Assembly (NCBI GenBank): GCA_963848155.1
Contig: CAWKCL010000007.1
Location: 1,201,443 to 1,265,442, forward strand
DNA: 64,000 bases
From: an uncultured delta proteobacterium
GTDB lineage: Bacteria; Desulfobacterota; Zymogenia; Zymogenales; Zymogenaceae
Direction of reading: 5' to 3'
The notes below the pieces were generated by a model. That model saw nothing but the letters and a program-made list of their open reading frames with translations, searched no databases and had not been told where the DNA came from. Position 1 is the first letter of the stretch, and each line of letters opens with the position of its first letter. Both the position numbers and the translations under genes were made by a program. Positions 11,631 through 43,610 of the stretch are shown here, one piece after another.

Positions 11631-11659
11631 CCCACATAAGCATCAGACTGAAAGGTCAA

Positions 11660-14014: not shown

Positions 14015-14231
14015 TGGCTAACCGCCCAGGAAGTATGATTAGGTAAGTATTATAGGTTTTGCATCACCCTCCTGTCAAAAGAAATATTTTGGTTTTCTAA
14101 CCGTTAATTATGTCAATACCTCCCGAACGATATGGGCCATTCCAGGCCTCTTGGCCCCAGGCGTCTGCCCGCAAGAAGGACTCAACAATCAGGCGATATG
14201 GACGGGCCAAGCATCTTTGAATCAATTATCT

Positions 14232-14489: not shown

Positions 14490-14785
14490 ATCGCCCCGTG
14501 ACGGCAGAAGTCCATCTTCCGCGTTTCCCCGGGCATTACCCTTCCATGAGCGTTAAGTCCGTCAAACGAGTATTCGATCCAACCGCTCTCGGCGTCGTTG
14601 AAAACCGTGATGGAAAAAGAGGCGAACCCGAAGTCAAACTCCACGAACGAATCGGTGAGTGCCCTCATAACATCGTTGGAAAACCAACCGTGTTTCGAAA
14701 CCTGAATATCGCTGATAATCGCCATGCCCGTCTCCTTAATAATAACGGGGGAGGTTCCCCTCCCCCCGAAATAGAACCCTATCAA
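14438..14785 (-). CDS. small phage head-completion/connector candidate
   Basis: 115 aa. 4-nt overlap with the capsid gene stop. Confidence 0.25.
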   Translation of the reverse strand: MIGFYFGGRGTSPVIIKETGMAIISDIQVSKHGWFSNDVMRALTDSFVEFDFGFASFSITVFNDAESGWIEYSFDGLNAHGRVMPGETRKMDFCRHGAIWLRGESGAEPYRLEVY

Positions 14786-15765
14786 CTCGTGGCCACGTTA
14801 CACCCGTACCAATAGCGCCATTGGACCACGCCAACACCGAAACGTCGCTTTATCTTGGCAAACCAGGTATCGGTGGCCTCATCACGATAGACAGTGATCT
14901 TGGCCGGCTGGCGGTCATAGAAACGAACACCCCGACGAGCCACGCCCATATACCAGGCGTTATCGTCTTCGATATATCGCCAGTAGACCGGTGTAAACAT
15001 CCCTTCCAGGACGTTCTTGTTCCCGTAGGCGTCTATCTCGTAGACGGACTGTAGAATCTGATCAAGGACAAATCGGTTCTTGGGATTGGTAACGATAACA
15101 TTGGGCTCGATCTTGACCCGCTCTCCCCGCTCGTTTACCGCATTGGTAACGGCCATCGCCGAATAGACGGTCTGGATAGTATCGTAGCTCATATCCAGGC
15201 TCGTGGTGAGGTTATTCAGTCTGACTGAGCCTTTGAGCTTGAAGGGGTGACCGTCCGCCCCGGCCCCGAAGAATCCCTTCCCGTCGTAAATGAACTTCGG
15301 ATACGGGTCGTCGTTGTTGGTGAACGAGCCGTTAAACGCGATACGGTCGCCGGCCGCCATCGCTCCCTTGTTGAAGACCCGGGCAACCGCCTCCTCTTCG
15401 GTAATCCTGACTCCCTCGCCCCAGCCCCTGGCAAATTCCATGAGATCGGCGTTAAGTTTCCCCGAATTGAGGTCACTCAGCATATCGTCGGTAAGCGCAA
15501 TCTGGTCCTTGTACGTCTTGAACTTGATATACCAGGTCCACCCCTCGGAGGGCTCGGTGAGCGGTATCTCCTGCCCGTCCGGGACTTCCTTGAGCCGGGA
15601 AACCCCGATAACCTCGGTACCCTTTATTCCGTCTCCCGTCGACACCGGCACGACCTCGACGATCTTGTCATAGACCGTTCCTTCGGCGTCGTATGATTCG
15701 AAATACCATTCGTAGAGATCCTGGGTAAGAAGCTCGGGAAAATTGCCTGATACCATAATTCCCAT
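14782..15765 (-). CDS. putative major capsid protein (HK97 fold; lambda gpE-like family suspected)
   Basis: 327 aa, the size of E-like capsid proteins. Preceded by DUF2190 decoration-like and scaffold-like genes, in the lambda Nu3-D-E order. Family assignment is from memory only. Confidence 0.45.
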   Translation of the reverse strand: MGIMVSGNFPELLTQDLYEWYFESYDAEGTVYDKIVEVVPVSTGDGIKGTEVIGVSRLKEVPDGQEIPLTEPSEGWTWYIKFKTYKDQIALTDDMLSDLNSGKLNADLMEFARGWGEGVRITEEEAVARVFNKGAMAAGDRIAFNGSFTNNDDPYPKFIYDGKGFFGAGADGHPFKLKGSVRLNNLTTSLDMSYDTIQTVYSAMAVTNAVNERGERVKIEPNVIVTNPKNRFVLDQILQSVYEIDAYGNKNVLEGMFTPVYWRYIEDDNAWYMGVARRGVRFYDRQPAKITVYRDEATDTWFAKIKRRFGVGVVQWRYWYGCNVATS

Positions 15766-15786
15766 ACACGTTCTCCTATTGTGTTA

Positions 15787-16263
15787 TTAGGCACCTGCCG
15801 TGCCGTAGTCGATGTCCGATCCGGTATCATTTTCCGAAAACGGCCCCTTGAGCATCGCATAGGCCAGGCCCATTTCCTCGTCAACCTCGACGATCCAGGC
15901 GTTCTTGTAGGTATCGGCCGCAATGTTAACCGACTGGGCCCCGTTGATATCGCAGGTCTGGAAGCAATGGCCCCGCCCAACACCCTGGGCGGGATAAACG
16001 AAGACGCTACCCGGCATCGCCAGCACGATTTGTATGGATTCATCGCCGTCGGCATCGGGCTTCTGATCAACCTTTTCGAGCGCGACACCCACGATGGGAT
16101 CGGACGCGGCGCTCCACTTCTTGATGTATCCGGCTCCGGCGGCCCCGCCCACGGCGTCCAGGACGACGATATCGCCGTCATCGATCGTACCGGTATCCGC
16201 CACTCTGGCCGTTACAACGACCCGGGGACCGTAGCTGTAACCATATTTCATGTAAGTTGCCAT
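15787..16263 (-). CDS. DUF2190-like head decoration/cement protein
   Basis: Start taken at MATYMKYGY, with GAGGAG 6 nt upstream on the minus strand. ...GDIVVLDAVGG...DPIVGVALEKV...IQIVLAMPGSVF... fits the DUF2190 beta-pattern. Confidence 0.4.
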   Translation of the reverse strand: MATYMKYGYSYGPRVVVTARVADTGTIDDGDIVVLDAVGGAAGAGYIKKWSAASDPIVGVALEKVDQKPDADGDESIQIVLAMPGSVFVYPAQGVGRGHCFQTCDINGAQSVNIAADTYKNAWIVEVDEEMGLAYAMLKGPFSENDTGSDIDYGTAGA

Positions 16264-16282
16264 GTGTACTCCTCTTCTATGA

Positions 16283-16993
16283 CTATTCATTTGTTTCGAG
16301 AAACGAAAGCCTGTTAGCGCGAGGGATCCTCCATATCTCGGAGAGCGCCGCATCGCCGCGCACCTTGTCCGACCTTTTCCTGACAAGCGCGGCGGCAAAC
16401 TCAGGGCTTACTCCGAGCGTCCGCGCCAGGCCCTCAACCTCTTCAGGATGAGAAGATGGCCCTTTAACCGGATTGGTCTCCGTTCCGATGTCGATCTGAT
16501 GGACGATGAAAAGATACGGCCTCTTCTCAAGGAGGGTATTGACCGCCGCGTTCGTACCGGTTACTTCCTTAGTCTCCAGATTAGCCGTTACGCCCGTCAG
16601 GTCGGCAAGTTTATAGGCGTCGGCAACCATGTTAGGGCTCATCCCGAGATCAACGGCCTTCTGGAAAAAATCCGTGTAGATCAGTGCGTCGGCGGCCGCT
16701 TCAATTTCCCGGGCTACCACCTCCCTCGAAGCGCTATCACCGTCAGCACCCGGTTTCTCGCCAAGCGGCGCCATCAATTCCGTGAGGGTCTCAAGCCGTG
16801 CCACGAGTGCCTCCAGCAGCTGGGTCAGCCGCTCCAGCGGCGCAGCATCAAAACCGTCACCCGTTTCTACCGCATCACCACCGGACGGCGCGCCACCGCC
16901 GGATGCCGCCGGCTCGATACCCGAACGGATTAGCGCGGGATCGGGAGCAATCGCCGTCGGCCCTGATATAGTGAACCTGTTAGCATCAACCAT
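16283..16993 (-). CDS. putative scaffolding protein
   Basis: 236 aa, acidic and A/E/L-rich. Helical segment ...LERLTQLLEALVARLETLTELMAPLGEK... First gene of the minus-strand head operon. Confidence 0.3.
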   Translation of the reverse strand: MVDANRFTISGPTAIAPDPALIRSGIEPAASGGGAPSGGDAVETGDGFDAAPLERLTQLLEALVARLETLTELMAPLGEKPGADGDSASREVVAREIEAAADALIYTDFFQKAVDLGMSPNMVADAYKLADLTGVTANLETKEVTGTNAAVNTLLEKRPYLFIVHQIDIGTETNPVKGPSSHPEEVEGLARTLGVSPEFAAALVRKRSDKVRGDAALSEIWRIPRANRLSFLETNE

Positions 16994-17150
16994 ACGTACT
17001 CCTCTCTAAGATATTCTTGATGATCATTGTACGGGTAGGGAGGTCGGGCTATTAAGAATATGAATTTCAATAGACATATTTCGTCCGATCTAATAGTATT
17101 ATTGAGCCGAATATGTAACGATTTTTAGTGAGATATGAGATGGTAAAATT

Positions 17151-18216: not shown

Positions 18217-18897
18217 TCACGCAATTTTCCAGAGCCGGTTCTTTTTGACAAGATCAAAGAGCTCACGGCTTCGCCGATCGATCTGTTCGAATCCCCATCG
18301 GTCGTAACTCAACAAGGCATTGGTAATAGCAAGCTCCGTGTCCCAGTAATATTTCTTCTCCTTTTTCTCGGAGAATGCACGGTTGGAGTGCCCCAAATTC
18401 CAGTCTCCGGTGACGAGGGTTAGGTTCCCGATACGGCCCATGTTTTCCCGATGAAGCTTGAGAATCTCATCTTTTGATCCCACGTCATTGATAAGTTCTT
18501 CCCGCCACCGCGTTCCAAGCACCACCGGCATGATGTGTTCGGTGGTAACAAGGCCAATATCCACCGGCTGTTCGTCCGGTTTCATGACCTGGGATAGTGT
18601 CAAGAGTATATATTTAGTTCGAGACTCGTTACCTTTGAAAGGCCGTGAGACGAAATTGCGGGCAAATGTCCTATCATCAATGCCGTTTTCCAGCAATTCC
18701 TCTGCAAGCGTATTTGTTATGAACTCGCGGTATTGGGACGGGTCATGGCCCGCAAGCTCGAGACAGATCGTGTTGTAAATCTGATCAAGGTTTCCGGTAA
18801 AGCGGCCGGAGATCCCCCAACGAATGTGGAACGCCTCGATGGCGCGAAGGATATCGCAGACGTCTTGCTCGGATATATTTCGAGTCCCGCGCCTCAA
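18217..18897 (-). CDS. GmrSD-like type IV restriction enzyme, C-terminal DUF1524 (His-Me finger nuclease) part
   Basis: ...EHIMPVVLGTRWREE...GNLTLVTGDWNLGHSNRAF... Overlaps the DUF262 ORF by ~110 nt in another frame. Confidence 0.55.
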   Translation of the reverse strand: MRRGTRNISEQDVCDILRAIEAFHIRWGISGRFTGNLDQIYNTICLELAGHDPSQYREFITNTLAEELLENGIDDRTFARNFVSRPFKGNESRTKYILLTLSQVMKPDEQPVDIGLVTTEHIMPVVLGTRWREELINDVGSKDEILKLHRENMGRIGNLTLVTGDWNLGHSNRAFSEKKEKKYYWDTELAITNALLSYDRWGFEQIDRRSRELFDLVKKNRLWKIA

Positions 18898-19900
18898 AGG
18901 CCGAAAAAACCGGAAGGAGAAGGGAATAAGAAGGCGTTACCTCAACGAGGTGAAGGTTTTTAAGGCGTCGGTTTACGGCCTCCGACGAAAAACCGGCCCG
19001 AACAATCTTATCGTAGATTGCCGCCTTTTCGGCCATATCGGCGGTAAAGGCCTTGATATCGGCCGGCTCGGCATGAGCGAGGGCAACCATGATCTTCTCA
19101 TAGAGCCGGGCCTCGGGGACCTTTCCTTTAAACCGGGACAGCACGTAGCGCCTGAGGAACTTAACCGGGTCCTTATCCCTGACCCTCGTGAACATCTCGT
19201 TCCACAAGAAGATAGTTTCGTCGAATATTTCGCGTATGCCGGATACTTTCATGAGCAGGAAGTTCTTGACCAGATCAACGGAGGAAAGCTCCAGCCCTCG
19301 ATCGTTGAGGGTATCGAAGAGCCGGAAGGCATTGAGATGAGAAAATACGTTGATATGCACGATGGAAATCTTATTGAGAAGGCCGGACAGAACATCTTCC
19401 TCGTTCTTATCACGATAGTAGGCATAGCATTTATTCAGGAGGCTCTCGTTCGCGCGGCGGGGGTTCCCCTCGAGGATTTCCTGAAAGAGCGGGTTGTCGA
19501 ATTCGCCGAGGGTGAGTTTCGGAATCCTGGTGAACTGCCCGTCGCTGTATTGGGTGATAAAGAGAAAACCGGTCAGGTAGTCGGCCAGCTCCGTTTCGCC
19601 CCGTTGCCTGAGGGAATCCCGCAGGGCCGCCAACCATATCAGGATCGTGGCCAGGCGTTGTTGCCCGTCTACGACCTGGTAATATTCCACGGCGGCACTC
19701 GTCTTCTGATCGCTTACGACGACCACGGAACCCAGGAAATGGACATCTGAATCGGCCAGCCCCAGCAGGTCGTCGTAGAGCTCCTGCCACTGCTCTTCGC
19801 TCCAAACGTAGGGCCGTTGATAGATCGGAACCTTATATGCCCGGTTTTTATCCAGGAGAAGGTTCTGCATCGTAATCTCGTGTGCATCAAGGAACTTCAT
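18785..19900 (-). CDS. GmrSD-like type IV restriction enzyme, N-terminal DUF262 (ParB-like NTPase) part
   Basis: ...YKVPIYQRPYVW... and ...VDGQQRLATILIWLAAL... (DGQQR motif). Start taken at MKFLDAHEIT (19900). The C-terminal 30 aa look like out-of-frame read-through. Confidence 0.6.
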   Translation of the reverse strand: MKFLDAHEITMQNLLLDKNRAYKVPIYQRPYVWSEEQWQELYDDLLGLADSDVHFLGSVVVVSDQKTSAAVEYYQVVDGQQRLATILIWLAALRDSLRQRGETELADYLTGFLFITQYSDGQFTRIPKLTLGEFDNPLFQEILEGNPRRANESLLNKCYAYYRDKNEEDVLSGLLNKISIVHINVFSHLNAFRLFDTLNDRGLELSSVDLVKNFLLMKVSGIREIFDETIFLWNEMFTRVRDKDPVKFLRRYVLSRFKGKVPEARLYEKIMVALAHAEPADIKAFTADMAEKAAIYDKIVRAGFSSEAVNRRLKNLHLVEVTPSYSLLLPVFSAFEARDSKYIRARRLRYPSRHRGVPHSLGDLRPLYRKP

Positions 19901-20060
19901 GGACGCATGTTTCCGTGAAGGAATGATATTCCTGCTATTTCGAGACGATCGGCCGCGAGGGGTGTGATATCCCTCAATGCCCGACCCTGCGGTACGCACC
20001 GAATCTAAATCCTATCACATTGCCGTGCCGTGCCGCTCCGTTTCCGACACCGTCTCCGGA

Positions 20061-23954: not shown

Positions 23955-24824
23955 ATGCATGTTACCTGTCCGTCATGTAAATTCGGTGGAACAGTACGAG
24001 ACGATCAGATTCCTCCTGACGGAAAAGAAGTCTATTGCCCTAACTGTAACGTAAAGTTTCGCATAAGGAAGGGACGAACCTCCCCGCCAAAACCTCCCCA
24101 AGACCGGGAGGAAGCCGTCACGGCGCAGACTGAACAACCTGAATATCTCTCGGTTTCCTGTCCCGTTTGCGGGTTCACGGGAAAGCTCAAACGAAGCAGT
24201 ATCGTCGGCGGTCAATCAAAGAAGATTACCTGTCCTTCATGTAAGAATCCATTCACGTTCACCCCGCCTGACGCCGCCCCCCTATCCGATAACGAAGTGT
24301 CGACTACCCGCACGGACGAGAACACGCCCTCATCGTGCCCGAGTTGCGGTTCATCCATACAGCGTCTGTTACCGGTCTGTCTCTCATGCGGCAGGGTGCT
24401 CACGGGAACTAAGATTTATTGTCCGTCGTGTAAATCCGCGAATGTTGGTATCAGCGGGAATTCCCATGGTAATGGAGGATCACAGTGGGAAACCACGGTA
24501 TTTAAACCCGTTTCTCGCGCGGCGGAAAATTCCGAGGATATACGCATCCCCATGTCATGCCGGGATTGCGGCATGACATGGATCGTACAGCCCACTCTTG
24601 CCGACACGACCGAAGAAACGGCCGGATGCTACCTCAGAGGAGGATTGAACGCTCGTTTCGCCCCTATTTCTCCCTTTGCAGAATCCCAGGTAACTGAGTT
24701 TACCGCGATAATAGCCGGCAGCAGAATAACCGAAGACACGTCAATTCATCAACTTCGCGTAATCCATTTCTCCGACGTTTCCCAACCTCAAAAGAGAAAT
24801 CCCTTTCCTTTTCAGTGGAGATAG
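23955..24824 (+). CDS. multi-zinc-ribbon protein (4-5 MJ0042-type CxxC...CxxC ribbons)
   Basis: Repeated C-P-x-C ... C-P-x-C units: CPSCKF..CPNCN, CPVCGF..CPSCKN, CPSCGS..CLSCGR, CPSCKS, CRDCGM. Confidence 0.55.
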   Translation: MHVTCPSCKFGGTVRDDQIPPDGKEVYCPNCNVKFRIRKGRTSPPKPPQDREEAVTAQTEQPEYLSVSCPVCGFTGKLKRSSIVGGQSKKITCPSCKNPFTFTPPDAAPLSDNEVSTTRTDENTPSSCPSCGSSIQRLLPVCLSCGRVLTGTKIYCPSCKSANVGISGNSHGNGGSQWETTVFKPVSRAAENSEDIRIPMSCRDCGMTWIVQPTLADTTEETAGCYLRGGLNARFAPISPFAESQVTEFTAIIAGSRITEDTSIHQLRVIHFSDVSQPQKRNPFPFQWR

Positions 24825-29571: not shown

Positions 29572-32500
29572 ATGTCCAGACAAGACACCGATAATAGCGG
29601 GTTTATATCAGAGACGCCGGTCGGAGATGATGCGGATATCTCCGAAAATACCGCGCCCGACGTAATGCCGCAAGATCCCGGAGGTGATTATCGTCTTGTC
29701 GTCGAAAACGCCAGCCAGGGAATTGTCATTGCCCGCGAGAATACCATTCGCTACGCGAACCCTACGATTACCCACTATACCGGATACACCCGTGAAGAAC
29801 TGACGTCTCGCCCCTTTATCGAGCTCATACATCCCGATGACCGAGAGATGGTTATTAAAGAACACCTTGATGTTCTCCTCGGGAAGGTGCCTGTCGGGCG
29901 CCTAAATCACCGTATCGTAGATAAAGAGGGACACATCAAATGGATGGAGGTCACCGGCGTTCCGTTCACGTGGGAGGGGGCGGCCTCTACGCTCCTTTTC
30001 ATTAGCGATATAACAGAACGAAAGGGAACTGAAGACCGGCTCCAGACAATCCGAAGAGAGATACCGGAACATGGTAGAGCATACCGGTGACCTTATCTAT
30101 GTCACGGACAGCGAAGGGAATTTCAAATTCATTAACCAGACAATTGAGCGAGAATACGGCTTTTCCGCCGGCGAGCTTCTCGGTAAGCGATTTAAAGATA
30201 TTGTCACGCCTGAATCTTACACATTTGCTATTGAAACCTTCAGAAAACAGGTGAAAGGTATTGACGTAGGTATCGTTGAATATAGCCTTTACGATAAGAA
30301 TGGCCAGATCAGAACAATCGAGGCCAACGAGCGTTTGGTATGGGAGGGCGACCGGGCGGTCGAGATTTACGGTATTGCCCGTGACGTAACCGATAGGAAA
30401 CGAGCGGAGGCGGCACTCAGGGAATCGGAAGAAAAGTACCGGCTGATCCTCGACAACGCGGTAGAAGGTATCGCCATTGCGTACGAGAAAGGGCTCGGTT
30501 ACGTCAATCCGCAAATGACGAAATATATCGGGTATACCCGCGAGGAACTGCTCGAGCGGCCGTTTATAGACTTCATTTACCCCGATGATCAGGAGGAAGT
30601 CATTAATACTCACCTGGCGCTCATGCAGGGAGGCAACGAGACTATTGCAGCGACACTCCGTTTCATTGCCAGAAACGGCGCCATTCTTTGGGCCTCATAT
30701 ACGTCGGTCCCCGTCATATGGGACGGGCAACGCGCGGTGCTCTCTTTCGTGAAAGACGTGACGGATCAAAAGAGGGTACTGGACGAGCTTGCCGAGAGCG
30801 AGGAGAAGTACCGCCTCGTTGTCGAAAACGCCGAGGAAGTAATCATAGTCGCGGTGGACGGGTATTTAGCGCTTTATAATAAGAAGACCTCCGAATTATT
30901 CGGCTATTCGGAAGAAGAGCTGGCGTCCACCCCGATCATCGAGTTTTTTCACCCCGATGACCGCAAACTCGTCCTTGACCATAGAAGTAAACGGGATAGC
31001 GGCGATCCGGAGCCCCAGTTTTTCACCGCCCGCATGCTCACGAAGGGCGGCACGATAGTCTGGATGGAAAACAGCGTAGTGACTTTCCTCTGGCGGGGGA
31101 AACGTGCTGCACTTGTAATTGCCACCGATATTTCGGAACGGAAGCGGGTCGAAGATACCCTGAAAGAATCCGAGGAGAAGTACCGCCTTGTTGTTGAAAA
31201 CGCCAACGAAATAATAACGGTATCCGTGGACGGCACCTTACGTTTTGTTAACATGAAGGCCCTGGCCATATCCTCCTACCGTGAAGACGAGCTGTTGGGG
31301 ACGCCTACAATCGACCTCGTTCACCCGGACGACCGTCACTTGCTTGATCGAGCATAGGCGAAAACTCGGTAGAGGAGAGAAAACACCGCCGCTGCTTATC
31401 ATGCGGCTTATCACTAAGGACGGCAACATCATATGGACCGAAAATAGCATCGTGCCTATGTTATGGCAGGGGAAACCCGCCGCACTCAATATAGCCACTG
31501 ACATCACCGAGCGAAAGCGAATCGAGGATGCCCTGAGGGAATCGGAGGAGAAGTACCGGCTGGTCGTCGAGAATGCCAACGAAATCATCGTCATAACGCG
31601 AAACGGAATCGTCGAATTTGCCAACAACCGAGTCATGACTCTTTTCGGGGTTCCACCGAGCGCACTGCTTGGGAGGCATCTCACCGAGTTGGTTATTGGG
31701 GCTGACCGGGAAAAACTACGCGACGAGCTTAAAGACCTGGTCTCCCGAGTGGACGATTTCCCCTATTATCGATATCGCATGCGTGATGCAGGGGGAAATA
31801 TCCGCTGTATCGAGGTCAATGGGATTCCGATTATATGGGAGGGGCAACCCTCAGTACTGAGCTTCGTCTCCGACATAACCGAGAAAGTTGACGCGGAAGA
31901 AGAAATAAAAAGAAGGCTTCGTTACGAGCAGGCCGTGGCCTTCTGTTCTCGTGAGCTTGTCCCTTTGGCCGACCTCGAACTGACGATGCAGAAAATCGTC
32001 CATCATCTTCTTGAAAACCTGGGGGTTGGGGGGGTCTTTATCTGCAAGAACGTGATGGACCCCGTCGAAGGCATCAGTATGCTGACCATTGCTGAGGCGT
32101 TGGACGACCGCCATGTGCCGCGGCTTGACTTCCCGATACCGGACAAGGTGCCATACAAGTATCGCTCACGGGAGATGTTCGATGCGTTGAGTAGTGGCCG
32201 CTGGTTCGGAGGGCCGACAAAAGACTATCCCCCGGTTGACCGCGAGGTCCTTGCAGTCCTCGGTTCTTTATCCAGCATAATGATCCCGATCTTCGTTGCC
32301 GATACATTCTGGGGTTTCATCGGTTTTGATGACTACGAGATAGAACGCGTCTGGGACGAGCAGGATATCCTCCTGCTCCAGACCGTCTCCTCGATAATAG
32401 GAACGGCCGTCGCCCGCAAAGAGGCGAAAGACGCCCTCACCGAATCCGAGAAGAAATATCGCGAATTGGTGGACAGCACACACGATATGATCTATGTGGC

Positions 32501-33828
32501 AGACTTCAGGGGAAATCTCAAGTTCGTGAACAACGCGGTGCGGCAGTTGGGATACGAGCCGGACGAAGTAATCGGGAGAAACTTCTACGACTTCTACGCC
32601 CCCTCCTCCAAGAAATACGCGCAGGAGCTTTTCCGCCTCCAGCGTTCCGGCGCCCAGCTTCACGGTTATGAGCTTGACCTCCTCAGAAAAGACGGGCAGG
32701 TCACGAACGATCGAATTCAACGACGAACTGAAATGGGAAGGAGAAAAAATCGTCGAGGTCCGGGGGGTCGGAAGGGACGTAACCGACCGCAAGAAGATGG
32801 ATGACCGGCTCAGGCTCGTGGCGGGAAGCCAGGAGGCTGTTTTGAACAGCCTGTCCGATATGGTCTTCTTTGCCGATCTAGCCCTGAAGATCACGTGGGC
32901 TAATAGCGCCACTTCCCAGTTAACGGGCCTTTCGATCGAAGAGATGGTGGGTCGTTTCTGCTACGAGGTATCGCGCCAAACAAACGCTCCGTGTGAGGGG
33001 TGTCCTGCCGTTGCATCTCTCTCCACCGGCCGGATCGAGAAGAACGATTCCATAACCTGTTTCGGCAAGAACCGCAGGATTACCGCGTACCCGGTGCCCG
33101 ATCTTTCGGGCAATATCACCGGCATGGCGGTCAGCATCGGCGGTATAAAGTCAAAGAATCTCCTTGATATTACCGAAAGCCTTTCACAGATCGACGACGA
33201 TATTGAGGATGACGGCAGCTCCGAAATCTTCCTGGCGCCGCTGGACCCGAACTATATTTATCCCTTCTCCCTTTCCATTGATGTTCAGAAGGATACCTTC
33301 CTCATTACCCTCAGGTGGGATGAATACCCCAGGGAACACGTGCTCAAACGGCTGGCAAGGTCCGAGTCGGCGGTTGCCCGTCTTATATACCTTGCCGCGC
33401 GCATGAAGTCGGACGGCAGCGGGTGGGTTGATAAAGACATCATCAGGGCCGGGACCATGGATACCAACCTCAATAAGCTGCGATCGCTCCTGGAAGAATC
33501 CAATGTGCCGTTTCTTGACCGTTTTTCGTCTCGAATGTTGATACGGAGCAACAGGGAAGAAAAGAAGAAGGTGCGGCTGGCCCTCTCCGCATCGAACATC
33601 GAGATATCTCCAAACATCAGGGATTTCCGGTCCAAGAAGCATCGATACATGGACGCCGTCTCAAAAAGGATCAGGACTCTCGAGCGGGAAATGAAAAGAC
33701 CCAGCCAGCCGAAGGAATACCTGATCAGTGAGCTGTCAATACAACATCAGAATGAAGTCAATCTCAAGAAGAGTATTGAAGTCGTAGAGACGCTCATCGG
33801 TGATTCGGTGATCCTTCTCAAGCTGTAG
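29572..33828 (+). CDS. large multi-PAS/PAC + GAF sensor protein, no recognisable kinase/GGDEF output; 4 ORF pieces with apparent frameshifts
   Basis: At least 8 PAS units, each introduced by a near-identical linker ...(R)ESEEKYRLVVENA... A GAF-like block lies at ~32.0-32.4 kb. ORFs 29572-30090, 30071-31357, 31281-32804 and 32668-33828 overlap pairwise. Confidence 0.6.
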
Positions 33829-34309: not shown

Positions 34310-35222
34310 CTACCTGCTCGGCTCCACTCTCGAATTAACGATACCCAGCTCGAAGTGATCGGAAACGAGCACGCAGCTGTAGATAAATCCCTGGATAAAA
34401 ACCCTGCTCCCCCTATCGAGGGAGGAAGACAGTTCGTCGGCCTGTTTGAGCCCGACATAGACCACGCTCCTTATCGGATTATCCGATTCCGCCTCGGCCT
34501 CAATGTCATAGCTGTAGAGCGTAAGGGGAAGCGTCTTCGCATACATCGCGTCCAGCTTGCCGACGTCCCTGACGATGAAATAGCCGACGAGCATTTTCCC
34601 CACGAGGTCCTGGGCGAATCCCTTGAGATCAAGCTCCCTTTGAAGGCCGGTCACCTCGGTCTCCTCGTTTAGCTTCCCATCGATTTCGGTAATATCAAGA
34701 AAGACGTCGCTGGTGAAGCTCTCCTCGAGGATGAGGGGCTCCGAAGGCTGTGCGGTATCGGTGTCGAGTGTTTTGATGGGGGCCGTGGAAACGGGGTCTC
34801 CCGTCGCTGTTGTTGAAGGTTCACCGGCCGGTGACGCCGGAGTCATAAGGCCGGCAGGCGCGGCCTCCTTTTTTTTGAGCGGATTGTTGAGCGTATAATC
34901 GTGCGTATATCTTCCAATCGAAAAAGCCGATTACGAATACGGCCGAAAGAGACAGTGCAAGAACGGCGATGCGGGTAACCATGCGGTCGGCCCTCACGCG
35001 CGAAACCCGTTCCTCACGCTGCCTGGAGGGGATAAAATCCCTCCCATCCACGTCCACCTCCCGCCGCGCGTTATTGCTTTTCGCGGGCCTCACCATGGCG
35101 CCGTCTTTGTTGACCGTAAATGTGGCCTTGCATTGGGGACATCCGACGGTCCTGCCTCCCTCCGGAATCAGGTCGTCTTTGATGTCCCCTTCGTAGCCGC
35201 ATTCAGGACACTGTGTTTTCAT
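34310..35222 (-). CDS. MJ0042-type zinc-ribbon - TM - DUF3426-like periplasmic domain protein (two overlapping ORFs; apparent frameshift)
   Basis: N-term MKTQCPECGYEG...CPQCKATF, then a TM helix IAVLALSLSAVFVIGFF. GGGAGG SD before the ATG at 35222. Confidence 0.5.
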
Positions 35223-35485
35223 AACCTCCCCGCATATGTGCGAAACAAACCGGCCGTTACTGCAGTAAAAGTTCAATGAGGCGTTTGGTAAGACTCTTCT
35301 TGATTTCCGGGGGACGCGAGCCGGCCTCTCCTTTTCGGTGCCCCTCAATGATCACGTCGACAAGGGCGACGCGCGTCCGCCTGTCGATAACCGCCTTCTT
35401 GATGGTTCCCGCGAAGAGGACCGTATCCCCGACACCATAGCTGAGGAACTCATCTGAATACGATTCGTCCAGCAGCAGCTCGACG

Positions 35486-36094
35486 TCATACCCCTTGTGG
35501 GTAAGCGGTGATGATCGTTCCCGGCGCGGTCAGGCCGAAGAAATCGAGGACGGTCGATCCCATCGTCTTTTCGATATTCGCGACGGTACCCATCCCCACG
35601 CACCCCTTGCCGACAAGGCCCTCCTGATACGAGGTGATCTGGAGCTCGGTCATGGAACCGGGATCGATTGCGATGGAATTGAGCAGGAGATACCCCGGGT
35701 ATTTTTCACCGAGTTTCTTCAGGATATCGGATTCCTTGCTTTCCTGGACCTGCCGCGAGATTCCGTTGATGAGGAAGAAGATCGCGATCCCGATCGCCAG
35801 GGCGGCGACGGCGATAAGACAGCCCCAGAGAAACGGGCGCCGCCTTTTTTTCTTTCCGTCCCGGTATGGCGGCGCGGTATCGGCCCCTCCGGCGATCGGC
35901 CCGCCGACTGCAGCACCGTCCGGGCGGGGGACGGATCCTGGATTTCCCGGCGGCTGATCGCCGGAAGGCACAACGACCAGGCCGACGGAAAACCGGTGGC
36001 CGCATGACGGGCAGATGACGCGCTTCTTATCCCGTCCGTCTTTGCCTTCCGGAACCCTACCCCTGAAGCCGCATGCCGGGCAGCAAATGATCAT
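35486..36094 (-). CDS. MJ0042-type zinc-ribbon - TM - periplasmic domain protein (paralog-like of 34310-35222)
   Basis: N-term MIICCPACGFRG...CPSCGHRF, a G/P-rich linker, TM LWGCLIAVAALAIGIAIFFLI, and a periplasmic C-terminus. Immediately downstream of the portal gene on the same strand. Confidence 0.5.
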   Translation of the reverse strand: MIICCPACGFRGRVPEGKDGRDKKRVICPSCGHRFSVGLVVVPSGDQPPGNPGSVPRPDGAAVGGPIAGGADTAPPYRDGKKKRRRPFLWGCLIAVAALAIGIAIFFLINGISRQVQESKESDILKKLGEKYPGYLLLNSIAIDPGSMTELQITSYQEGLVGKGCVGMGTVANIEKTMGSTVLDFFGLTAPGTIITAYPQGV

Positions 36095-36316
36095 CGGATC
36101 ACCGATAGTTATTCTTATTAAGGATATCAGAAACAGGCGATATGTCAATGGAATTTCGGACGCGATGTGGAGGGGCCGTAGTACGGCGCCGTGAACGCAC
36201 GTACCCTTCTTTGGATATGACGGGGCCGCCGTCCCATGAGGGACGGCGGCCCCGTCGTTTCGCCGGACCGCCCGCGGCCCGGCCGCTGACTGCCGGCTAC
36301 GATTCCAGCCGTCGGA

Positions 36317-37564
36317 TCAGGGGTCTTGCCTCCCCTTCATCTTCTCTACCATCTGTTCGTCGTAGCCGAGTTCCTTGAGCGCCTCGGTCATAAACCCCCG
36401 GTCGGCCAGGAACTGCGCCCGCGCCAGCACGTGCTGGGGGTCCTCGCCGGAGAGAGACGGAAACGATACCGTCGCCACGAAGAGGCCGGTGCCGAACTTG
36501 ACCGCGAGGAACTTCTCTATCAGTTCCTCGAAGCCTCTCCTCAGATAGATCAGCTTCTTTTCGGTATACCGCTTGAGGCCCTCGAGCAGCGTGTTGAGCG
36601 CCTTGGCCGACGTGGCCGACGAGGCGACCTCCTCCCTGAGCTTCCGGGGTACGCATCCCAGCCGGTAGAGGTGGTCCAGCGCGTCCTCGAGCTCGCGCTC
36701 CACCGCCGAGAGGTCAACGTCGCCCCCCACCGCCTCCAGGGGGATCGGTGAGAGCGCCCCGGGCGATACGGTGATGGTCGTGCCCGGCTGCACGTGGCCC
36801 GATTCCTTGGGCGCCCATACCCGAAAGCTGTTATATTTCGTGGCCCAGGCCCGCTTGGTCAGGGCCATGTTCACGGCCAGCTGCCCCTCGACCAGGTCCT
36901 GGATTCCCGAGCGGCCGTAGGGGCTCCCCTCCGATTCCTCCCGGAGGATCTTGACAACCGGGATAAAGCCGAAGGCATGCGCCTCTCTCTTTACGAGCCT
37001 TCCGTCGATATAAAAGGAGAAGCCCTCCGCGTCGATCTCTTCCCGCATGGCCGACATCCTCACGCCTCCACCCTCCAGCGTCGCCGCCTCTTCCCACCCG
37101 AAGACGTATTTCTTGACTTCGAGGTAGTTCTTCTCGTCGGTGATGACTTCCACGTCCTGGGAATACATCTTCTGGACACAGACCTCCCCGCCCCTGACGA
37201 AGAGCTTCAAAAAGAGCGTCCCGTAGTTCTCCTGCGTCAGGTAGTAGCCGGGCAGCGCCTCCCAAAAGGTGCGGCCGCCGCCGAAGTTGCGGGACTTCAG
37301 CCACGCCGTTACCTCGCCGGTCAGCCCGTCGTGGGGCGCGGTCTCGCCCCTCCTGGTCACGACAACGTCGAAGGTCGGCGGCATGAAGTTAGCCCTCGTG
37401 TCCTGGATGACCCGGATGTCGTTTTGAAAATAGAAGTCCCTGATAGATATCCGCTGCTCTTTCGGCAGACCTTCGGCAACCCGGCGGCCCGTGAAATCTT
37501 TGAAGATTGCCTCCCGGCGGCCGTCGTAATAGTCCAGGAAGAGCTTCATGTCGTTTTTGTTCAT
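36317..37564 (-). CDS. phage portal protein
   Basis: Start MNKNDMKLF (37564). ~415 aa. Downstream of the large terminase. Central ...SPYGRSGIQDLVEGQLAVNMALTKRAW... and a helical C-terminus typical of portal proteins. Confidence 0.6.
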   Translation of the reverse strand: MNKNDMKLFLDYYDGRREAIFKDFTGRRVAEGLPKEQRISIRDFYFQNDIRVIQDTRANFMPPTFDVVVTRRGETAPHDGLTGEVTAWLKSRNFGGGRTFWEALPGYYLTQENYGTLFLKLFVRGGEVCVQKMYSQDVEVITDEKNYLEVKKYVFGWEEAATLEGGGVRMSAMREEIDAEGFSFYIDGRLVKREAHAFGFIPVVKILREESEGSPYGRSGIQDLVEGQLAVNMALTKRAWATKYNSFRVWAPKESGHVQPGTTITVSPGALSPIPLEAVGGDVDLSAVERELEDALDHLYRLGCVPRKLREEVASSATSAKALNTLLEGLKRYTEKKLIYLRRGFEELIEKFLAVKFGTGLFVATVSFPSLSGEDPQHVLARAQFLADRGFMTEALKELGYDEQMVEKMKGRQDP

Positions 37565-37628
37565 ATGATTCCCTTTCGCGGGCCGTGCCGGTAAACCGGC
37601 CGCAACCGCGGGAGAAAGTCCGAACCCC

Positions 37629-37847
37629 CTACAGGGCGGCCTTCCCAAAGTCGTCCTGGGAGACCTTCCGGCGCCTGACGAGCCTCGCCCAGCGGACCGT
37701 ATCCATCGGCAGTATCGCGGCGACCCTGAACCACCGCCGGACGACGACCGCACCGTCGCGAACGTCTATCGATCTCACGTTTGAGAAGGACCGCGTTTCT
37801 CCGTCCGTAAACCGCACCTCGGCATCCATACCGGCTCCTGTCATCAA
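37629..37847 (-). CDS. small hypothetical protein between terminase and portal
   Basis: 72 aa. ATGA-type 4-nt overlap with the terminase stop suggests translational coupling. Confidence 0.3.
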   Translation of the reverse strand: MMTGAGMDAEVRFTDGETRSFSNVRSIDVRDGAVVVRRWFRVAAILPMDTVRWARLVRRRKVSQDDFGKAAL

Positions 37848-39067
37848 AAACCAAGCGTCCGTTCAAAGTCCGACTGGCTCACCCTGATCCCCCTGATCCC
37901 CCACGCGGCAAGCGCCAGCGATATGACACAGTCATCATGGAAACCCGCCGGCGCCCCGTACGAGACGCCCCCTCCCGGGAGGTTTTTCAGCTCGAACATC
38001 GCCAGCTCGTCGACCAGCTCCTGTATCGGGGGGATACTGATCTTCCGCTCGTCGATCAGGAGGACAAGGTTTTCGATGAGCGCCGACTTTGATTCGTTGG
38101 TGAATCGAAAACCCCGGCAGGCCGCCCCCATCCGTATCAGGTCTTCGAGGATCGGATCGCCCACGCCGGTGGAATCGACCCAGGCGACGGCCCGGTTGTA
38201 CCGCCTGATCGCCGAGACCACCCGCCGCTTCATCGCCGTCCAGGTCGTCCCGGAGAAGCGGTCAAAGTAGACGACCGATCCCGTGGCGTCGACAATCGTC
38301 AGCACCGTGTAGTCGCGGTGCCTGCCGATATCCAGTCCCGCGGTATACCGTCCGCCGGGCAGCGGGTCGGCCAGTCCCCCCGTGACGATGTCGTTGACCC
38401 CCGAGAAGACGCCCGCCCCGTCGTCGATGAACCGGGCCAGGTACTCCTGGGCGAAGACCGCCTCGGGCAGGGTCCGCCGCGCGTCCTCGATCTCTTCCGG
38501 GCGTATGTACGGGTTATTTTCGGTGGGAAAGGTGAAGGATTGCCAGCCCGCCTGCTCGCTGTCCATCCCGCGGGAAAAGAGGCGAAAAAACCAGTTCTTC
38601 CCCTTGGGCGTGCCCACAAAGAGCGCCTTGCCCTGCCGGTCCGAAAGCGCCGGCCTCAGGACCTCCTCCCAGAGGTCTTTCGAGAGGAAGGCCGCCTCGT
38701 CCACCACCAGGAAGTCGATGCCGAACCCCCGCAGGTTTTCCGGGATCTCGGCGCTCCTGAACTCGAGCACCGACCCGTTGACGAGGCCGACCCTCCGGTC
38801 GGTTTTGTGGATATCGGCCACCGCCCCCCTCGGCATCCCCCGCCTCACCAGGTCAAAGGCGATCGCGCTCTGGCGCAGCACCGGCGCCACCCAAAACGAG
38901 AGGGAGCCCGGCTTTTCCCAGGCGTGCCTGACCATCTCCGCCGTGGCGGCCAGCGTCTTTCCCCACCTCCTGCCGCACGCGGCCACCCTGAAACGGGCGT
39001 CCGATTCGTGCAGGGCCTTCTGGCCCGCGTGGGGGCGGTACAGCTTAAGTCTCTTGGTCTTCGTCAT
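37844..39067 (-). CDS. phage terminase large subunit
   Basis: Start MTKTKRLKLY (39067). Walker A-like ACGRRWGKT and Walker B IDFLVVDEAAF. ...GTPKGKNWFF... C-terminal RNaseH-like nuclease with ...GLDIGRHRDYTVLT... and ...GFHDDCVISLALAAW... Confidence 0.75.
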   Translation of the reverse strand: MTKTKRLKLYRPHAGQKALHESDARFRVAACGRRWGKTLAATAEMVRHAWEKPGSLSFWVAPVLRQSAIAFDLVRRGMPRGAVADIHKTDRRVGLVNGSVLEFRSAEIPENLRGFGIDFLVVDEAAFLSKDLWEEVLRPALSDRQGKALFVGTPKGKNWFFRLFSRGMDSEQAGWQSFTFPTENNPYIRPEEIEDARRTLPEAVFAQEYLARFIDDGAGVFSGVNDIVTGGLADPLPGGRYTAGLDIGRHRDYTVLTIVDATGSVVYFDRFSGTTWTAMKRRVVSAIRRYNRAVAWVDSTGVGDPILEDLIRMGAACRGFRFTNESKSALIENLVLLIDERKISIPPIQELVDELAMFELKNLPGGGVSYGAPAGFHDDCVISLALAAWGIRGIRVSQSDFERTLGF

Positions 39068-39311
39068 CGATAAAGGTCGCCTCGTAAACCACTTCGTCTT
39101 CGTTGCCCGTCCTTTCCGAGATGAGGTCGATATACTTGAGGTAAAGCTCCTGGTACTTGATGTCTCCCTCCCCGGCCTTTTTGACGATGTCCCGAAAGAC
39201 CGCGTCGGCGCCCCCCGCTCCGGCGGCATCCCCGTCACCGGCGGGAGCGCCGCCGTCGGGCCGCGCGGGCGGGGCGGCCCCGGTCCCCTCTTCAATGCAT
39301 TTCTTCTTCAT
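39045..39311 (-). CDS. small acidic protein upstream of terminase (possible small-subunit-like or unknown)
   Basis: 88 aa. G/A/D-rich N-terminus, then ...VFRDIVKKAGEGDIKYQELYLKYIDLISERTGNEDEVVYEATFIDDEDQET. Overlaps both neighbours. Confidence 0.3.
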   Translation of the reverse strand: MKKKCIEEGTGAAPPARPDGGAPAGDGDAAGAGGADAVFRDIVKKAGEGDIKYQELYLKYIDLISERTGNEDEVVYEATFIDDEDQET

Positions 39312-39522
39312 TCACCCGCCGCTTTAGATAGTCCTGTATCCGGTCGATTCGATAGGCCACGTCCGACTGGGTAACGCCGATGCTGTCGCCGATATACCCC
39401 TGGGAGTATCCCCGCCGGTGCATCAGCCATATCCAGAGCTCCATGTCGGGCATTTCCATCAGCGCCCGCTCGTAATCCACCACGAAATTATGCTCCGCAA
39501 AGAAGGTGTCACCTTTATACAT
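39292..39522 (-). CDS. sigma-70 region-4-like (HTH only) small protein; candidate terminase small subunit or ArpU/RinA-like late activator; paralog of 20818-21071
   Basis: Start MYKGDTFFAEH, with GGAGG 9 nt upstream. ...YERALMEMPDMELWIWLMHRRGYSQGYIGDSIGVTQSDVAYRIDRIQDYLKRRV... Confidence 0.5.
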   Translation of the reverse strand: MYKGDTFFAEHNFVVDYERALMEMPDMELWIWLMHRRGYSQGYIGDSIGVTQSDVAYRIDRIQDYLKRRVNEEEMH

Positions 39523-39644
39523 AGTCCGTACCTCCAAATCTGTACGTCCGATTCTACCGGGTAATGACCGGACGCTATGAAGATTATGAGAAGCGAGGAG
39601 TGAAAAGTGAAGCGCTGGCGTAGGCGTTGACAAAACGGGCGCGG

Positions 39645-41287: not shown

Positions 41288-41887
41288 CTATTCGCCTTTC
41301 CGCTCGTGGGTCGGGTTCTTTCCGTCGGTGGGGTTGTTGGGTTCGTAGTAGTCCTCCACCACTCCGCTTTCATGGCCGAACGGGATCTTCTCGGCGTCCT
41401 TCGTGAAGAGCAGCAGGACGTCCCCGTCCTTAACGGTCAGCGATCCGGGGGTGGTGATGGTCCGCAGCTTGTAGTCGATGACGATCGGATCGTCGAGGTA
41501 GGTGATCTTCCCGTCGCGGGAAACCACCGCGCCGTCAATCTTGCCGGCCCCATCCGGGTTGGGGATGGAGATGAACTCCAATAGCTCCGCCTCGCAGATA
41601 CTGCCGTCAAAGCTCAGCGCGCCGGCCGGCAGCGTGACGTCGGGCGTGTACTTGGCCTGGTCCTTGCCGACCCTCAGCACCATCGACTCGATGGACGGAA
41701 ACACCTTCGCGTTCTCCGCGACAGACATGGTGGCCGTCTTCACGAGGCCTTCTGTGCTCGACACCGCGTCCTCGCCGAGGACGTCCACGTTGACCACGCG
41801 CACCTTGACCACCGGCGATGCCGCCATCGCCACGACGGCCAATGATAAGACCGCTATGATCGCGACAAATAATATACTCTTTTTCAT
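41288..41887 (-). CDS. secreted ~20-kDa protein of unknown function, cassette copy 1
   Basis: Signal peptide MKKSILFVAIIAVLSLAVVAMAA. 199 aa. AGGAGGAG SD. Confidence 0.55.
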   Translation of the reverse strand: MKKSILFVAIIAVLSLAVVAMAASPVVKVRVVNVDVLGEDAVSSTEGLVKTATMSVAENAKVFPSIESMVLRVGKDQAKYTPDVTLPAGALSFDGSICEAELLEFISIPNPDGAGKIDGAVVSRDGKITYLDDPIVIDYKLRTITTPGSLTVKDGDVLLLFTKDAEKIPFGHESGVVEDYYEPNNPTDGKNPTHERKGE

Positions 41888-42152
41888 AACACGCTCCTCC
41901 TAAAGGAAACTTTTTTTCTATTAGTCAAAAAATCAGCATGACCCTTTATACTATCTATTCTATCCCATTTGTGCGTCCGGCGTCACACTTTTTTTCGTAT
42001 CGTGCACGAAAATATGCCATTGTGTGACATGACTCACCCGGCCGGTCGGCAGTTGACTATGACATACCCCGCAAGAAAACGCCCCTCTCCGTGAAGAGGG
42101 GCGTCGTCGTACCGAGTCATAACCGGTAATATCCGGCTACGAGGCGTTACCT

Positions 42153-42749
42153 CTATTGCCTTTGATCAGGGCCGGCCTCGTGGGATTGTTCGGTTCTTGA
42201 TGATAGAAGTCCGCCACGCGGTTCCGGCGTTTCGTGTCCGAACTGGATCGGCTCCGCGTCCTTTGCGAACAGCAGCAGCACGTCCCCGTCGTTTGACGGC
42301 CAGCGATCCGGGCGTAATGATGGACCGCTCTTTGTAGTCGATGACGATCGGCTCGTCGAGGTAGGTGATCTTTCCGTCGCGGGAAACGATAACACCGTCA
42401 AACTTGCCGGCCCCCTCGGGGTTGGGGAGGGAGATGAACTCCATCATCTGCTCCTCGGTGAGGCTCCCGTAAAAGCTCAGCGCACCGGCCGGCAGCGTCA
42501 CGTCCGGCGTGTACTTCGCTTGTCTTTGCCGACCCTCAGCACCATCGTCTCGACCGCCGGGAAGACGTTCGCGTTCTCCGCGATCGACATCGTGGCCGTC
42601 TTCACGAGGCCCTCGGGGGTGGATACCTCGTCCATCCCGAGCTCGGTGACGTTGACCACCCTGACCTTGACCACCGGCGACGCCGCCATCGCCGCCACGG
42701 CTAGCGACAGGACCGCTATGATCGCGACAAAGAATATACTCTTTTTCAT
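42153..42749 (-). pseudogene. cassette copy 2 of the secreted protein, broken into 3 ORFs by frameshifts
   Basis: ORFs 42498-42749, 42166-42501 and 42153-42401 together reproduce the copy 1/3 sequence. A downstream hairpin CGCCCCTCTCC-GTGA-AGAGGGGCG lies at 42070-42092. Confidence 0.55.
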
Positions 42750-43010
42750 GGCACCCTCCTCCCTCAGGAAATTTCTTTCCTGTTAGCCAAAAAATCCGTA
42801 TAATCCTTTTATACTACCTATTTTATCGCATTTTTGCGCCCATCGTCACACTTTTCTTCATATCATACACAAATATGATTATTTTGTGACATGACTCACC
42901 CGGCCCGTCGGCGGCTATATCGGTGCGTACCCCCGCAAAAAAGCGCCCCTCTCTCTCGAGAGGGGCGCTCGTATATACGTTCGGTGTCGGAAACGCTCAT
43001 TGCCTGCCTG

Positions 43011-43610
43011 CTACTGGTGCGTCAGGCTGCCGCCGTTCGGCCTGCCGGGATTACGCTGGCTGCGGTGGCGGTCGGTGTCGCCGCTCGACTTTTCATGGCC
43101 GAACGCGATCGGCTCCGAGTCCTTCGCGAACAGCAGCAGCACGTCTCCGTCGCCGACTGCCAGGGATCCGGGGGTAGTAATGGACCTCACCTTGTAGTCG
43201 ATGACGATCGGATCGTCGAGGTAGGTGATCTTCCCGTCCGGGGAAACGATCACACCGTCAAACTTGCCGGCCCCCTCCGGGTTGGGGACGGAGATGAACT
43301 CCAGCATCTCCGCTTCGCTGATGCTGCCGGAAAAACTCAGCGCGCCTGCCGGCAGCGTGACGTCGGGCGTGTACTTCGCCTGGTCCTTGCCGACCCTCAG
43401 CACCATCGTCTCGATGGACGGAAACACCTTCGCGTTCTCCGCGATCGACATGGTGGCCGTCTTCGCGAGGCCTTCCGGGCTCGACACCGCGTCCTCGCCG
43501 AGGACATTGAGGTTGACCACCCTGACCTTGACCACCGGCGATGCCGCCATCGCCGCCACGGCCAATGACATGATTGCTATGATCGCGATAAAAAATATAC
43601 TCTTTTTCAT
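43011..43610 (-). CDS. secreted ~20-kDa protein of unknown function, cassette copy 3
   Basis: 199 aa, ~80% identical to copy 1. A downstream hairpin AGCGCCCCTCTC-TCTCGAG-AGGGGCGCT lies at 42941-42968. Confidence 0.55.
   Translation of the reverse strand: MKKSIFFIAIIAIMSLAVAAMAASPVVKVRVVNLNVLGEDAVSSPEGLAKTATMSIAENAKVFPSIETMVLRVGKDQAKYTPDVTLPAGALSFSGSISEAEMLEFISVPNPEGAGKFDGVIVSPDGKITYLDDPIVIDYKVRSITTPGSLAVGDGDVLLLFAKDSEPIAFGHEKSSGDTDRHRSQRNPGRPNGGSLTHQ

Follow-up and report, generated by a model that had tools for sequence, protein, structure and literature searches.

A candidate packaging operon beside gltX in the Zymogenia, part of a putative multi-locus, gene transfer agent-like particle system of phage origin

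The 64-kb stretch of DNA analysed here (hereafter, the window), from contig CAWKCL010000007.1 of an uncultured bacterium of the candidate class Zymogenia (Desulfobacterota), carries a phage-derived five-gene cassette at positions 36317–39522, which encodes a large terminase (TerL), a portal protein and three small proteins. This cassette is probably the packaging operon of a domesticated, vertically inherited, multi-locus particle system that resembles gene transfer agents (GTAs). As predicted from the gene content, the system would produce particles, package host DNA non-specifically and transfer it to other cells. The preliminary description of this DNA presented the cassette as an orphan module wedged between gltX and genes of zinc-ribbon membrane proteins. 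Neither part of this picture holds: partner structural genes lie inside the same window, at 2948–16993 on the same strand, and the cassette has co-diverged with gltX, which does not agree with a recent insertion.

Packaging proteins and their inheritance with gltX

The five co-oriented open reading frames (ORFs) at 39522–36317, minus strand, encode HTH76, acid88, TerL, orf72 and the portal, and the packaging set named in the preliminary description is present and intact. TerL (37844–39067, minus strand, 407 aa), which is composed of an ATPase domain and an RNaseH-like nuclease domain, matches the profiles Terminase_6N (1.6e-15), Terminase_6C (2.5e-5) and phrog_2 (2.7e-45). It possesses the features of T4-like large terminases of the Terminase_6 type, namely a Walker A motif (G32-R-R-W-G-K-T38), a Walker B motif VVDE with its D-E pair (D123 E124), an arginine finger and the acidic residues of an RNaseH-like nuclease (D246, D298 and D378/D379). 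Residues G32 R33 R34 G36 K37, D123 E124, D246, D298 T300 G301 and D378 D379 are invariant in an alignment of 32 homologues, phage proteins among them. The intactness of TerL and the portal, suggested earlier, is borne out; all catalytic residues of TerL are invariant, with no inactivating substitution there. The closest solved structures are those of TerL of the thermophilic phages P74-26/G20c (4zni, 5m1f), with E-values of 3.7e-27 over the ATPase part and 1.3e-19 over the nuclease part. The proteins have in common Walker A, the Walker B D-E pair and an arginine at the position mutated in 4znj, but the Zymogenia TerL is about 30–35% identical to its thermophilic counterparts, is encoded in a chromosome and co-diverges with host genes.

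The portal (36317–37564, minus strand, 415 aa) belongs to the SPP1 gp6 type. It scored 22.7 bits against the Pfam family SPP1_portal (PF05133), just under the cut-off of 25.5, which is passed by its homologues. When an AlphaFold model, built from 28 sequences and with a pLDDT of only 64.7, was compared with the PDB using Foldseek, the top 50 matches were all phage portals, among them those of 80alpha (the best, E 2.6e-11) and SPP1 gp6 (4.4e-10). The portal family is very small and comprises 30 proteins at E <= 1e-3 among 5.8 billion.

As was found by a tblastn search, the five-gene cassette, in the same order and adjoining gltX, is present in GTDB genomes L001–L004, and gene-context look-ups added L015 and L016, Zodletone genomes that are less closely related to the window and likewise carry it next to gltX. 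L016 (JAFGIX) is the type genome of Ca. Zymogenus saltonus. In total, six other genomes of the Zymogenia lineage carry the cassette beside gltX. The genes 3′ of the portal differ and include zinc-ribbon genes in the close relatives of the window, genes of Pirin and a major facilitator superfamily (MFS) transporter in L015 and a DUF1611 gene in L016. This indicates that the conserved unit ends at the portal.

The ratios of nonsynonymous to synonymous substitution rates (dN/dS), estimated by the Nei-Gojobori method, were 0.13–0.25 for TerL, 0.075–0.24 for the portal and 0.15–0.23 for gltX; the values for HTH76, acid88 and orf72 were 0.07–0.32, 0.16–0.53 and 0.16–0.58, respectively. The dS of the cassette tracks that of gltX in every pair, as illustrated by the pairs with L001 (TerL 0.54, portal 0.62, gltX 0.54) and L004 (0.11, 0.14 and 0.15). 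The GC content at third codon positions (GC3) is 0.85–0.86 in the TerL and portal genes, 0.87 in gltX and 0.83–0.87 in gltX and its neighbours taken together, and the capsid and tail genes, with 0.56–0.73, match purB, purF and a nitroreductase gene (0.64–0.69). The phage-derived genes agree in GC3 with their own local regions. The window as a whole is heterogeneous in this respect, with values of 0.83–0.87 around gltX (36–47 kb) versus 0.56–0.74 elsewhere (2–34 kb).

The conserved site, the purifying selection, the dS matching that of gltX and the GC3 values, taken together, rule out a decaying remnant and disfavour repeated site-specific integration. The terminase and portal genes could be thought of as an inert leftover of a prophage from which the rest was deleted, as structural genes do not adjoin the cassette within 19 kb and a counterpart of the gene located after the portal of related phages is missing. 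The probability of this explanation is close to nil: dN/dS values of 0.07–0.25 persist over divergences with dS > 1, the catalytic residues are invariant, synteny is kept in at least six other genomes, and the codon composition has converged on that of the neighbouring host genes.

A perfect 17-bp GC-rich hairpin (36219–36256, minus strand; z = -5.1 for the region) is located 3′ of the portal stop codon. It is not followed by a U-tract and likely represents the operon end. Both proteins encoded downstream of the portal contain Zn_ribbon_4 domains, in accordance with the zinc-ribbon part of their earlier assignment as Zn-ribbon-TM-DUF3426-type proteins; a match to DUF3426 was not found. Their genes were considered as a part of the operon and rejected, being absent 3′ of the portal in L003, L015 and L016 and, in the window, separated from it by the hairpin and by a promoter of their own, TTGACA-16-TATCCT, in front of Zn220. 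They are unrelated neighbours. Three paralogous Zn_ribbon_4 membrane proteins are encoded in the window (23955–24824, 34821–35348 and 35486–36148), scattered in the host DNA between the phage-derived clusters. On the other side of gltX (41288–43610, minus strand), there are three tandem copies of a gene for a protein of about 199 aa with a signal-peptide-like N-terminus, the middle copy being frameshifted. The number and sequence of these copies vary among related genomes, and no family match was found for them.

Phage relatives, head-tail-lysis genes and the shared promoter

The nearest outgroup portals (47–51% identity) and capsids (57–62%) are encoded in true phage contigs, L021, L022 and L023 (PJEL010000461 and Ga0105097_10000067). 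In these phages, a sigma4-HTH gene comes first, and after it those of the small terminase, TerL and the portal, with small ORFs between the last two; a protein of 299 or 386 aa, the scaffold, a protein of 161 aa and a capsid of the Phage_capsid_4 family are encoded next. When the ORFs of these contigs were searched against the window, a second cluster came to light, of 14 kb (2948–16993, minus strand), about 19 kb from the packaging operon, and profile searches added more genes to it. The earlier statement that no capsid, protease or tail gene is found downstream is therefore correct for the next 19 kb only; beyond this distance there are genes for a scaffold, a capsid, a tail tube, tail proteins and an endolysin. 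The packaging and head clusters lie on the same strand and follow the gene order of the nearest phages. The uncultured phages share with the Zymogenia system homologous portal, TerL (about 50% identity), capsid, 161-aa and scaffold proteins, and the order of the genes agrees. In L022, a sigma4-like helix-turn-helix (HTH) protein of 87 aa is encoded upstream of TerL as well. They have features of their own, including contiguous genes, methylases, HNH nucleases, an HTH-bearing small terminase and the 299-/386-aa protein after the portal.

Both operons of the window start with a common promoter, T[CAT]ATA-N4-T[CAT]ATA followed after 17–19 nt by TA[ACG]AAT (TNATA-N4-TNATA-N17-19-TANAAT), which has no TTGACA-like -35 element. 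The copy of the packaging operon (39551–39589, minus strand) reads TCATA-N4-TCATA, 19 nt, TAGAAT and is conserved in L001, L003, L004, L015, L016 and L017; the copy of the head-tail-lysis operon (17026–17063, minus strand) reads TCATA-N4-TAATA, 17 nt, TACAAT. Transcription would start about 22–26 nt ahead of the first start codon, at 39544 (about 22 nt ahead of HTH76) and at 17019 for the head-tail-lysis operon. A stricter form of the motif has two matches in the 64-kb window, exactly at the two operons, and none in 100 shuffles; each related locus has a single match, in the corresponding place. A weight matrix trained only on the packaging promoters recovered the head promoter as the best non-self site of the window (21.2 vs 16.1) and as the best site in L024 and L026 (24.9 vs 16.8 and 12.8). 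The motif is also present once, directly 5′ of the scaffold gene, in each of L028, L029, L031 and L043, which were fetched after the motif had been defined. The TCATA-repeat promoter is absent from all the phage loci, L021–L023 included, unlike the Zymogenia operons, and a further copy was not found within the 14-kb head-tail cluster of the window. In L024, the sequence TCATATTCTTCATGA with a weak -10 element (19371–19409), 195 nt upstream of a tail sub-cluster split off by host genes, is possibly a third copy of the shared promoter. The conserved TTGTCAAC, upstream of this promoter, belongs to the promoter of the divergent gltX gene as its -35 element.

The finding of the element's own capsid and tail genes led to the rejection of a reading of the cassette as a defence decoy or satellite. 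With the terminase and portal that it encodes, an element of this kind would hijack capsids from a phage infecting the cell, and it would agree with a module that locally holds packaging genes only and with a GmrSD-type restriction enzyme encoded in the intervening region. It is scarcely credible, as the capsid, scaffold and tail genes co-occur with the packaging genes and have the same promoter, no integrase or replication module was found among the ORFs searched, and the inheritance is vertical. A PADLOC scan of eight proteins yielded no matches to models of anti-phage defence systems.

The dispersal of the cassettes, like the absence of replication, integration and lysogeny-control genes, was judged on the window together with the flanks that were fetched. 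Three genomes contain both the packaging cassette and the head cassette. The two are located on different contigs in GCA_016931225 (L015 and L024, respectively; capsid P0157, 76% identity) and in GCA_964506935 (L003 and L043; capsid P0154). The head cassette of L024 adjoins an orthologous nitroreductase gene, as in the window; an acetyltransferase gene and then the genes of Fe-ADH, FGGY, DeoC and cytochrome P460 separate its head genes, the gene of a 482-aa protein and the tail genes. In L034 and L044, host genes adjoin the end of a head cassette of five genes, these being either arginine-biosynthesis genes or those of DUF389, MFS and RecD2 proteins. An orthologous Band_7/NfeD pair (about 80% identity; 5515–6890 in L001, 16572–17999 in L016 and 4719–6045 in L024) adjoins the 3′ end of the portal gene in L001 and lies at a distance of 3.8 kb from it, on the same side, in L016, whereas in L024 and L026 it is found 3–4 kb before the scaffold gene. 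The pair marks the ancestral gap between the portal and scaffold genes.

These arrangements also bear on the possibility of an inducible, self-transmissible prophage in which 19 kb of host DNA has been inserted after the portal gene and ahead of that of the scaffold. The common strand, the phage-like order and the joint span of 36.6 kb, which could fit a large phage head, are what such a prophage would display. It is nonetheless very improbable: no integrase, repressor or replication genes were found among the searched cassette ORFs and a subset of the larger intervening ORFs (purB, purF, the GmrSD-type restriction enzyme and the LytR-family gene among them), the insert includes purB and purF, two other genomes have the cassettes on separate contigs, each among host genes of its own, and their dS equals that of gltX. 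Scans of IMG/VR with the portal and the capsid likewise found no relatives, and TerL relatives there reach at most 48% identity. A TerL homologue (L020 10001–14527, 48% identity, 509 aa) is encoded in a 145-kb contig and adjoins NurA and HerA (DUF87) genes. The context of this gene is archaeal-looking: genes resembling those of UbiA and geranylgeranyl reductase precede it, and its vicinity lacks portal and capsid genes.

The head cassette of the window (14232–16993, minus strand) includes genes for the scaffold (16283–16993), a protein of about 161 aa (15787–16293), the major capsid protein (14782–15765; Phage_capsid_4, 5.2e-16; 57–62% identity to the phages L021–L023) and proteins of 115 and 85 aa. 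The scaffold and the 161-aa protein are homologues of phage-contig ORFs, as are the products of two more genes, at 14456–14235 and 11947–11675 of the same strand. No prohead protease was found, and the capsid belongs to the scaffold-dependent Phage_capsid_4 family. The tail and lysis genes (2948–14014, minus strand), detected by profile searches, comprise those of the tail tube (10380–11147; phrog_807, 4.6e-16; NF052337, 66.4 bits, over the cut-off), a phrog_4408 protein (9840–10229), a possible tape measure protein of 315 aa (8816–9763), a tail protein (5846–6565; phrog_6079, 3.6e-16), a baseplate-hub-like protein (3885–4259) and an M15 endolysin (2948–3394; phrog_894, 8e-11). The tail is of the tube type, and no sheath gene was detected. 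The gene at 12743–14014 (minus strand), which separates the head genes from those of the tail, encodes a repeat-containing protein of 423 aa that may be a decoration or fibre protein. Its 482-aa counterpart in L024 (45% identity) stands alone between host genes. On the left, the cluster is bounded by enoyl-CoA hydratase and CorA genes.

The gap of 19.3 kb between the portal and scaffold genes contains a nitroreductase gene, the GmrSD-type restriction enzyme, a LytR-family gene, purB, purF, YgaP, the Zn-ribbon proteins and ORFs of PAS-like sensor kinases, as judged from translations. The GmrSD-type enzyme (18217–19999, minus strand) is split into two overlapping ORFs, one for the N-domain (404 aa) and one for the C-domain (226 aa). 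The corresponding matches in L029 share one frame, so that the window copy is frameshifted, being either a real pseudogene or the result of a long-read indel error. Four overlapping ORFs with PAS-like repeats (29572–33828, plus strand) resemble one large sensor-kinase gene broken by frameshifts, and single ORFs occupy this position in L004 (1056 aa) and L002 (1380 aa). Indel errors are likely in these assemblies, as frameshifts affect housekeeping genes of L002 and L004 too, gltX among them.

Small proteins of the packaging operon

The packaging operon begins, after a GGAGG ribosome-binding site, with the gene of HTH76 (39292–39522, minus strand, 76 aa), a stand-alone sigma-70 region-4-like HTH protein and a proposed activator of the shared promoters. 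The Pfam families considered for sigma-70 region 4 were PF08281/PF04545. The window protein has no Pfam match at E <= 0.1, and its Zymogenia orthologues reach at most 22.9 bits against the Sigma70_r4_2 cut-off of 25.7. The phage homologues L022:6240–6503 and L007:6394–6606 pass this cut-off with 37.7 and 44.5 bits, and HTH76 is linked to them by phmmer (the 87-aa protein of L022, 1.6e-4) and by a profile search (L007:6394–6606, 2e-8). The placement of HTH76 in the region-4-like HTH family, proposed from the start, is thus supported by its phage homologues, the window protein itself remaining under the Pfam threshold. Its relatives number only 14 among 1.84 billion representative proteins, the short ones being of 77–113 aa. 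The sole NCBIfam match is the “positive control sigma-like factor” PRK06930 (E 0.0036, 17 bits, far under the cut-off), a family which presumably includes Xpf of PBSX.

Two roles had been offered for this protein, a small terminase subunit and a late activator of the ArpU/RinA type. No small-terminase match was found for HTH76 in Pfam, PHROGs or NCBIfam, the acid88 ORF stands between its gene and TerL, so that it is not directly 5′ of TerL, and the related phages encode a separate Sf6-like small terminase, which speaks against the first role. The late activator fits better, since the HTH gene heads an operon whose promoter, lacking a -35 box, also precedes the head operon. Matches to the ArpU and RinA families themselves were absent from Pfam, PHROGs and NCBIfam at E <= 0.1, and a functional analogy with these late activators is possible. 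The combination of a promoter without a -35 box and a region-4-only protein as the first gene product of the operon suggests that HTH76 probably activates these promoters and is not a small terminase. GafA, the regulator of RcGTA, has a sigma-like C-terminal domain (PMC9638019). Like GafA and Xpf, HTH76 would be a dedicated regulator of particle genes with a sigma-70 region-4-like DNA-binding domain; it differs from them in its size of just 76 aa, in consisting of region 4 alone, in being encoded by the first gene of the packaging operon, in its phage origin and in that its activator role is predicted.

The small acidic protein acid88 (39045–39311, minus strand), whose ORF overlaps that of HTH76 by 20 nt and the start of TerL by 23 nt, has a variable, low-complexity N-terminus and a conserved C-terminal part of about 50 aa with the motif V[FL]xxI[VI]xxAxxGxxKxQELYLKY...Yxx.F[IV]DD. 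As the preliminary description had it, acid88 has no known family. The protein has no HTH and occupies the position of the HTH-bearing small terminase of the related phages, where the small terminase gene lies directly upstream of TerL and shows weak, sub-threshold matches to the Sf6 small terminase (E 0.007 and 0.0024). GTA small terminases without a DNA-binding domain are a published idea (PMC6854486, PMC11841831), and the position of acid88 fits it. That acid88 is a remnant of a small terminase is a guess from gene position.

The TerL stop codon and the ATG of orf72 (37629–37844, minus strand, 71 aa) share one base (TGATG) and not the four bases of the ATGA overlap reported earlier for a 72-aa ORF. 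The start conserved in distant orthologues is a Met codon 15 nt downstream of this ATG, so that the conserved core begins at 37829 and the protein has 66–71 aa. The portal gene, preceded by a spacer of 64 nt, is not translationally coupled, contrary to the preliminary description. The fold of orf72 predicted from the single sequence (pLDDT 83) is a five-strand SH3/Sm-like beta-barrel. A Foldseek search with this model gave only generic SH3/Sm-like barrels (Hfq, CooT) at E >= 0.05 and no informative neighbour, and for this reason no function can be assigned to orf72. The profiles of orf72 and acid88 found no homologues among the ORFs of 80 IMG/VR TerL loci and the phage loci, and the HTH profile found one weak match there.

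Gene transfer agents and killing particles

Phage-like structural and packaging genes are located in the host chromosome, conserved in the lineage and kept under purifying selection; the proportion of nonsynonymous differences (pN) is well under that of synonymous ones (pS) in the head and tail genes as well. These genes are distributed over several loci, and no genes of replication, integration or lysogeny control were found among the ORFs searched in the window and fetched flanks. GTAs resemble remnant phages and are encoded at several loci (PMC11841831, PMC6854486). The multi-locus system fits the sequence-level definition of a GTA (PMC11841831, PMC5026251), and the phage lineage from which it comes is, judging by the comparisons made, unrelated to RcGTA. 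As in RcGTA, BaGTA, VSH-1, Dd1 and VTA, there is a phage-derived set of head, tail, packaging and lysis genes that lacks those of replication and integration (PMC11841831, PMC6854486, PMC5026251), and the likeness extends to multiple loci, vertical inheritance and purifying selection, and may extend to the small HTH-less protein at the small-terminase position. The Zymogenia system differs from the known GTAs in its scaffold-dependent capsid with no prohead protease found, in its origin from another phage lineage (that of L021–L023), in its host from another phylum-level group and in being known here from genes alone. The cassette proteins matched no GTA- or RcGTA-annotated family in Pfam, PHROGs or NCBIfam, the last of which we take to include RcGTA-type models.

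In the mechanism proposed, a signal would turn on at least two operons with the common TNATA-N4-TNATA-N17-19-TANAAT promoter, the switch most likely being HTH76. The portal would nucleate the assembly of the procapsid, for which the cluster at a distance of 19 kb would supply scaffold and capsid proteins, and TerL would dock on the portal and carry out headful packaging of DNA, in which acid88 may help. Tails would then attach, and the M15 endolysin would free the particles.

Several points weigh against a GTA-like system. The hosts are uncultured, and all that is seen of the system here is its genes. The tail genes were confirmed in one other genome only (L024), dS is saturated in distant comparisons of the head and tail genes, and no homologue of the 299-/386-aa post-portal phage protein was found in the window. 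The evidence that connects HTH76 with the promoter motif is circumstantial, and a profile-profile comparison by hhalign indicated no homology between acid88 and the phage small terminase (probability 0.4%). Packaging, besides, need not mean transfer: Bacillus PBSX particles package DNA and yet act as killing particles.

A defective phage similar to PBSX, with DNA-containing particles selected for the killing of competitors or for lysis of the producer, would have the same anatomy, including head, tail and lysis genes together with TerL and the portal under purifying selection, and the only NCBIfam match of HTH76, to PRK06930, points in the same direction. This match is very weak, and the tube-type tail with no sheath gene detected does not correspond to a contractile killing device. 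Sequence alone cannot separate the two kinds of particle. A PBSX-like killing role seems unlikely, though it is the most serious of the alternatives weighed here.

The reading of the cassettes as a GTA-like system can be taken further, tentatively and with less than even confidence, to an independently evolved Zymogenia GTA whose dispersed operons would be wired together by a region-4-only, phage-derived regulator that reads tandem TNATA elements instead of a -35 box. More speculatively still, the TNATA sites might double as packaging start sites and so bias transfer towards the element's own loci.

Few independently evolved GTAs are known, and it is difficult to distinguish them from dead prophages when only the sequence is available (PMC11841831). 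The present analysis offers a comparative recipe for their recognition, which combines a dS equal to that of housekeeping neighbours, a codon composition in agreement with the local genomic surroundings, cassettes dispersed among host genes and a private shared promoter. It also carries a lesson for annotation, as a seemingly orphan terminase-portal pair can be a piece of a larger system. HTH76 and the TCATA-repeat promoter make up a compact and directly testable regulatory pair. The class description of the Zymogenia mentions no phage or GTA (10.1101/2021.03.22.436540), and the system described here would be a candidate GTA in a rare, uncultured, anaerobic lineage without an earlier GTA report.

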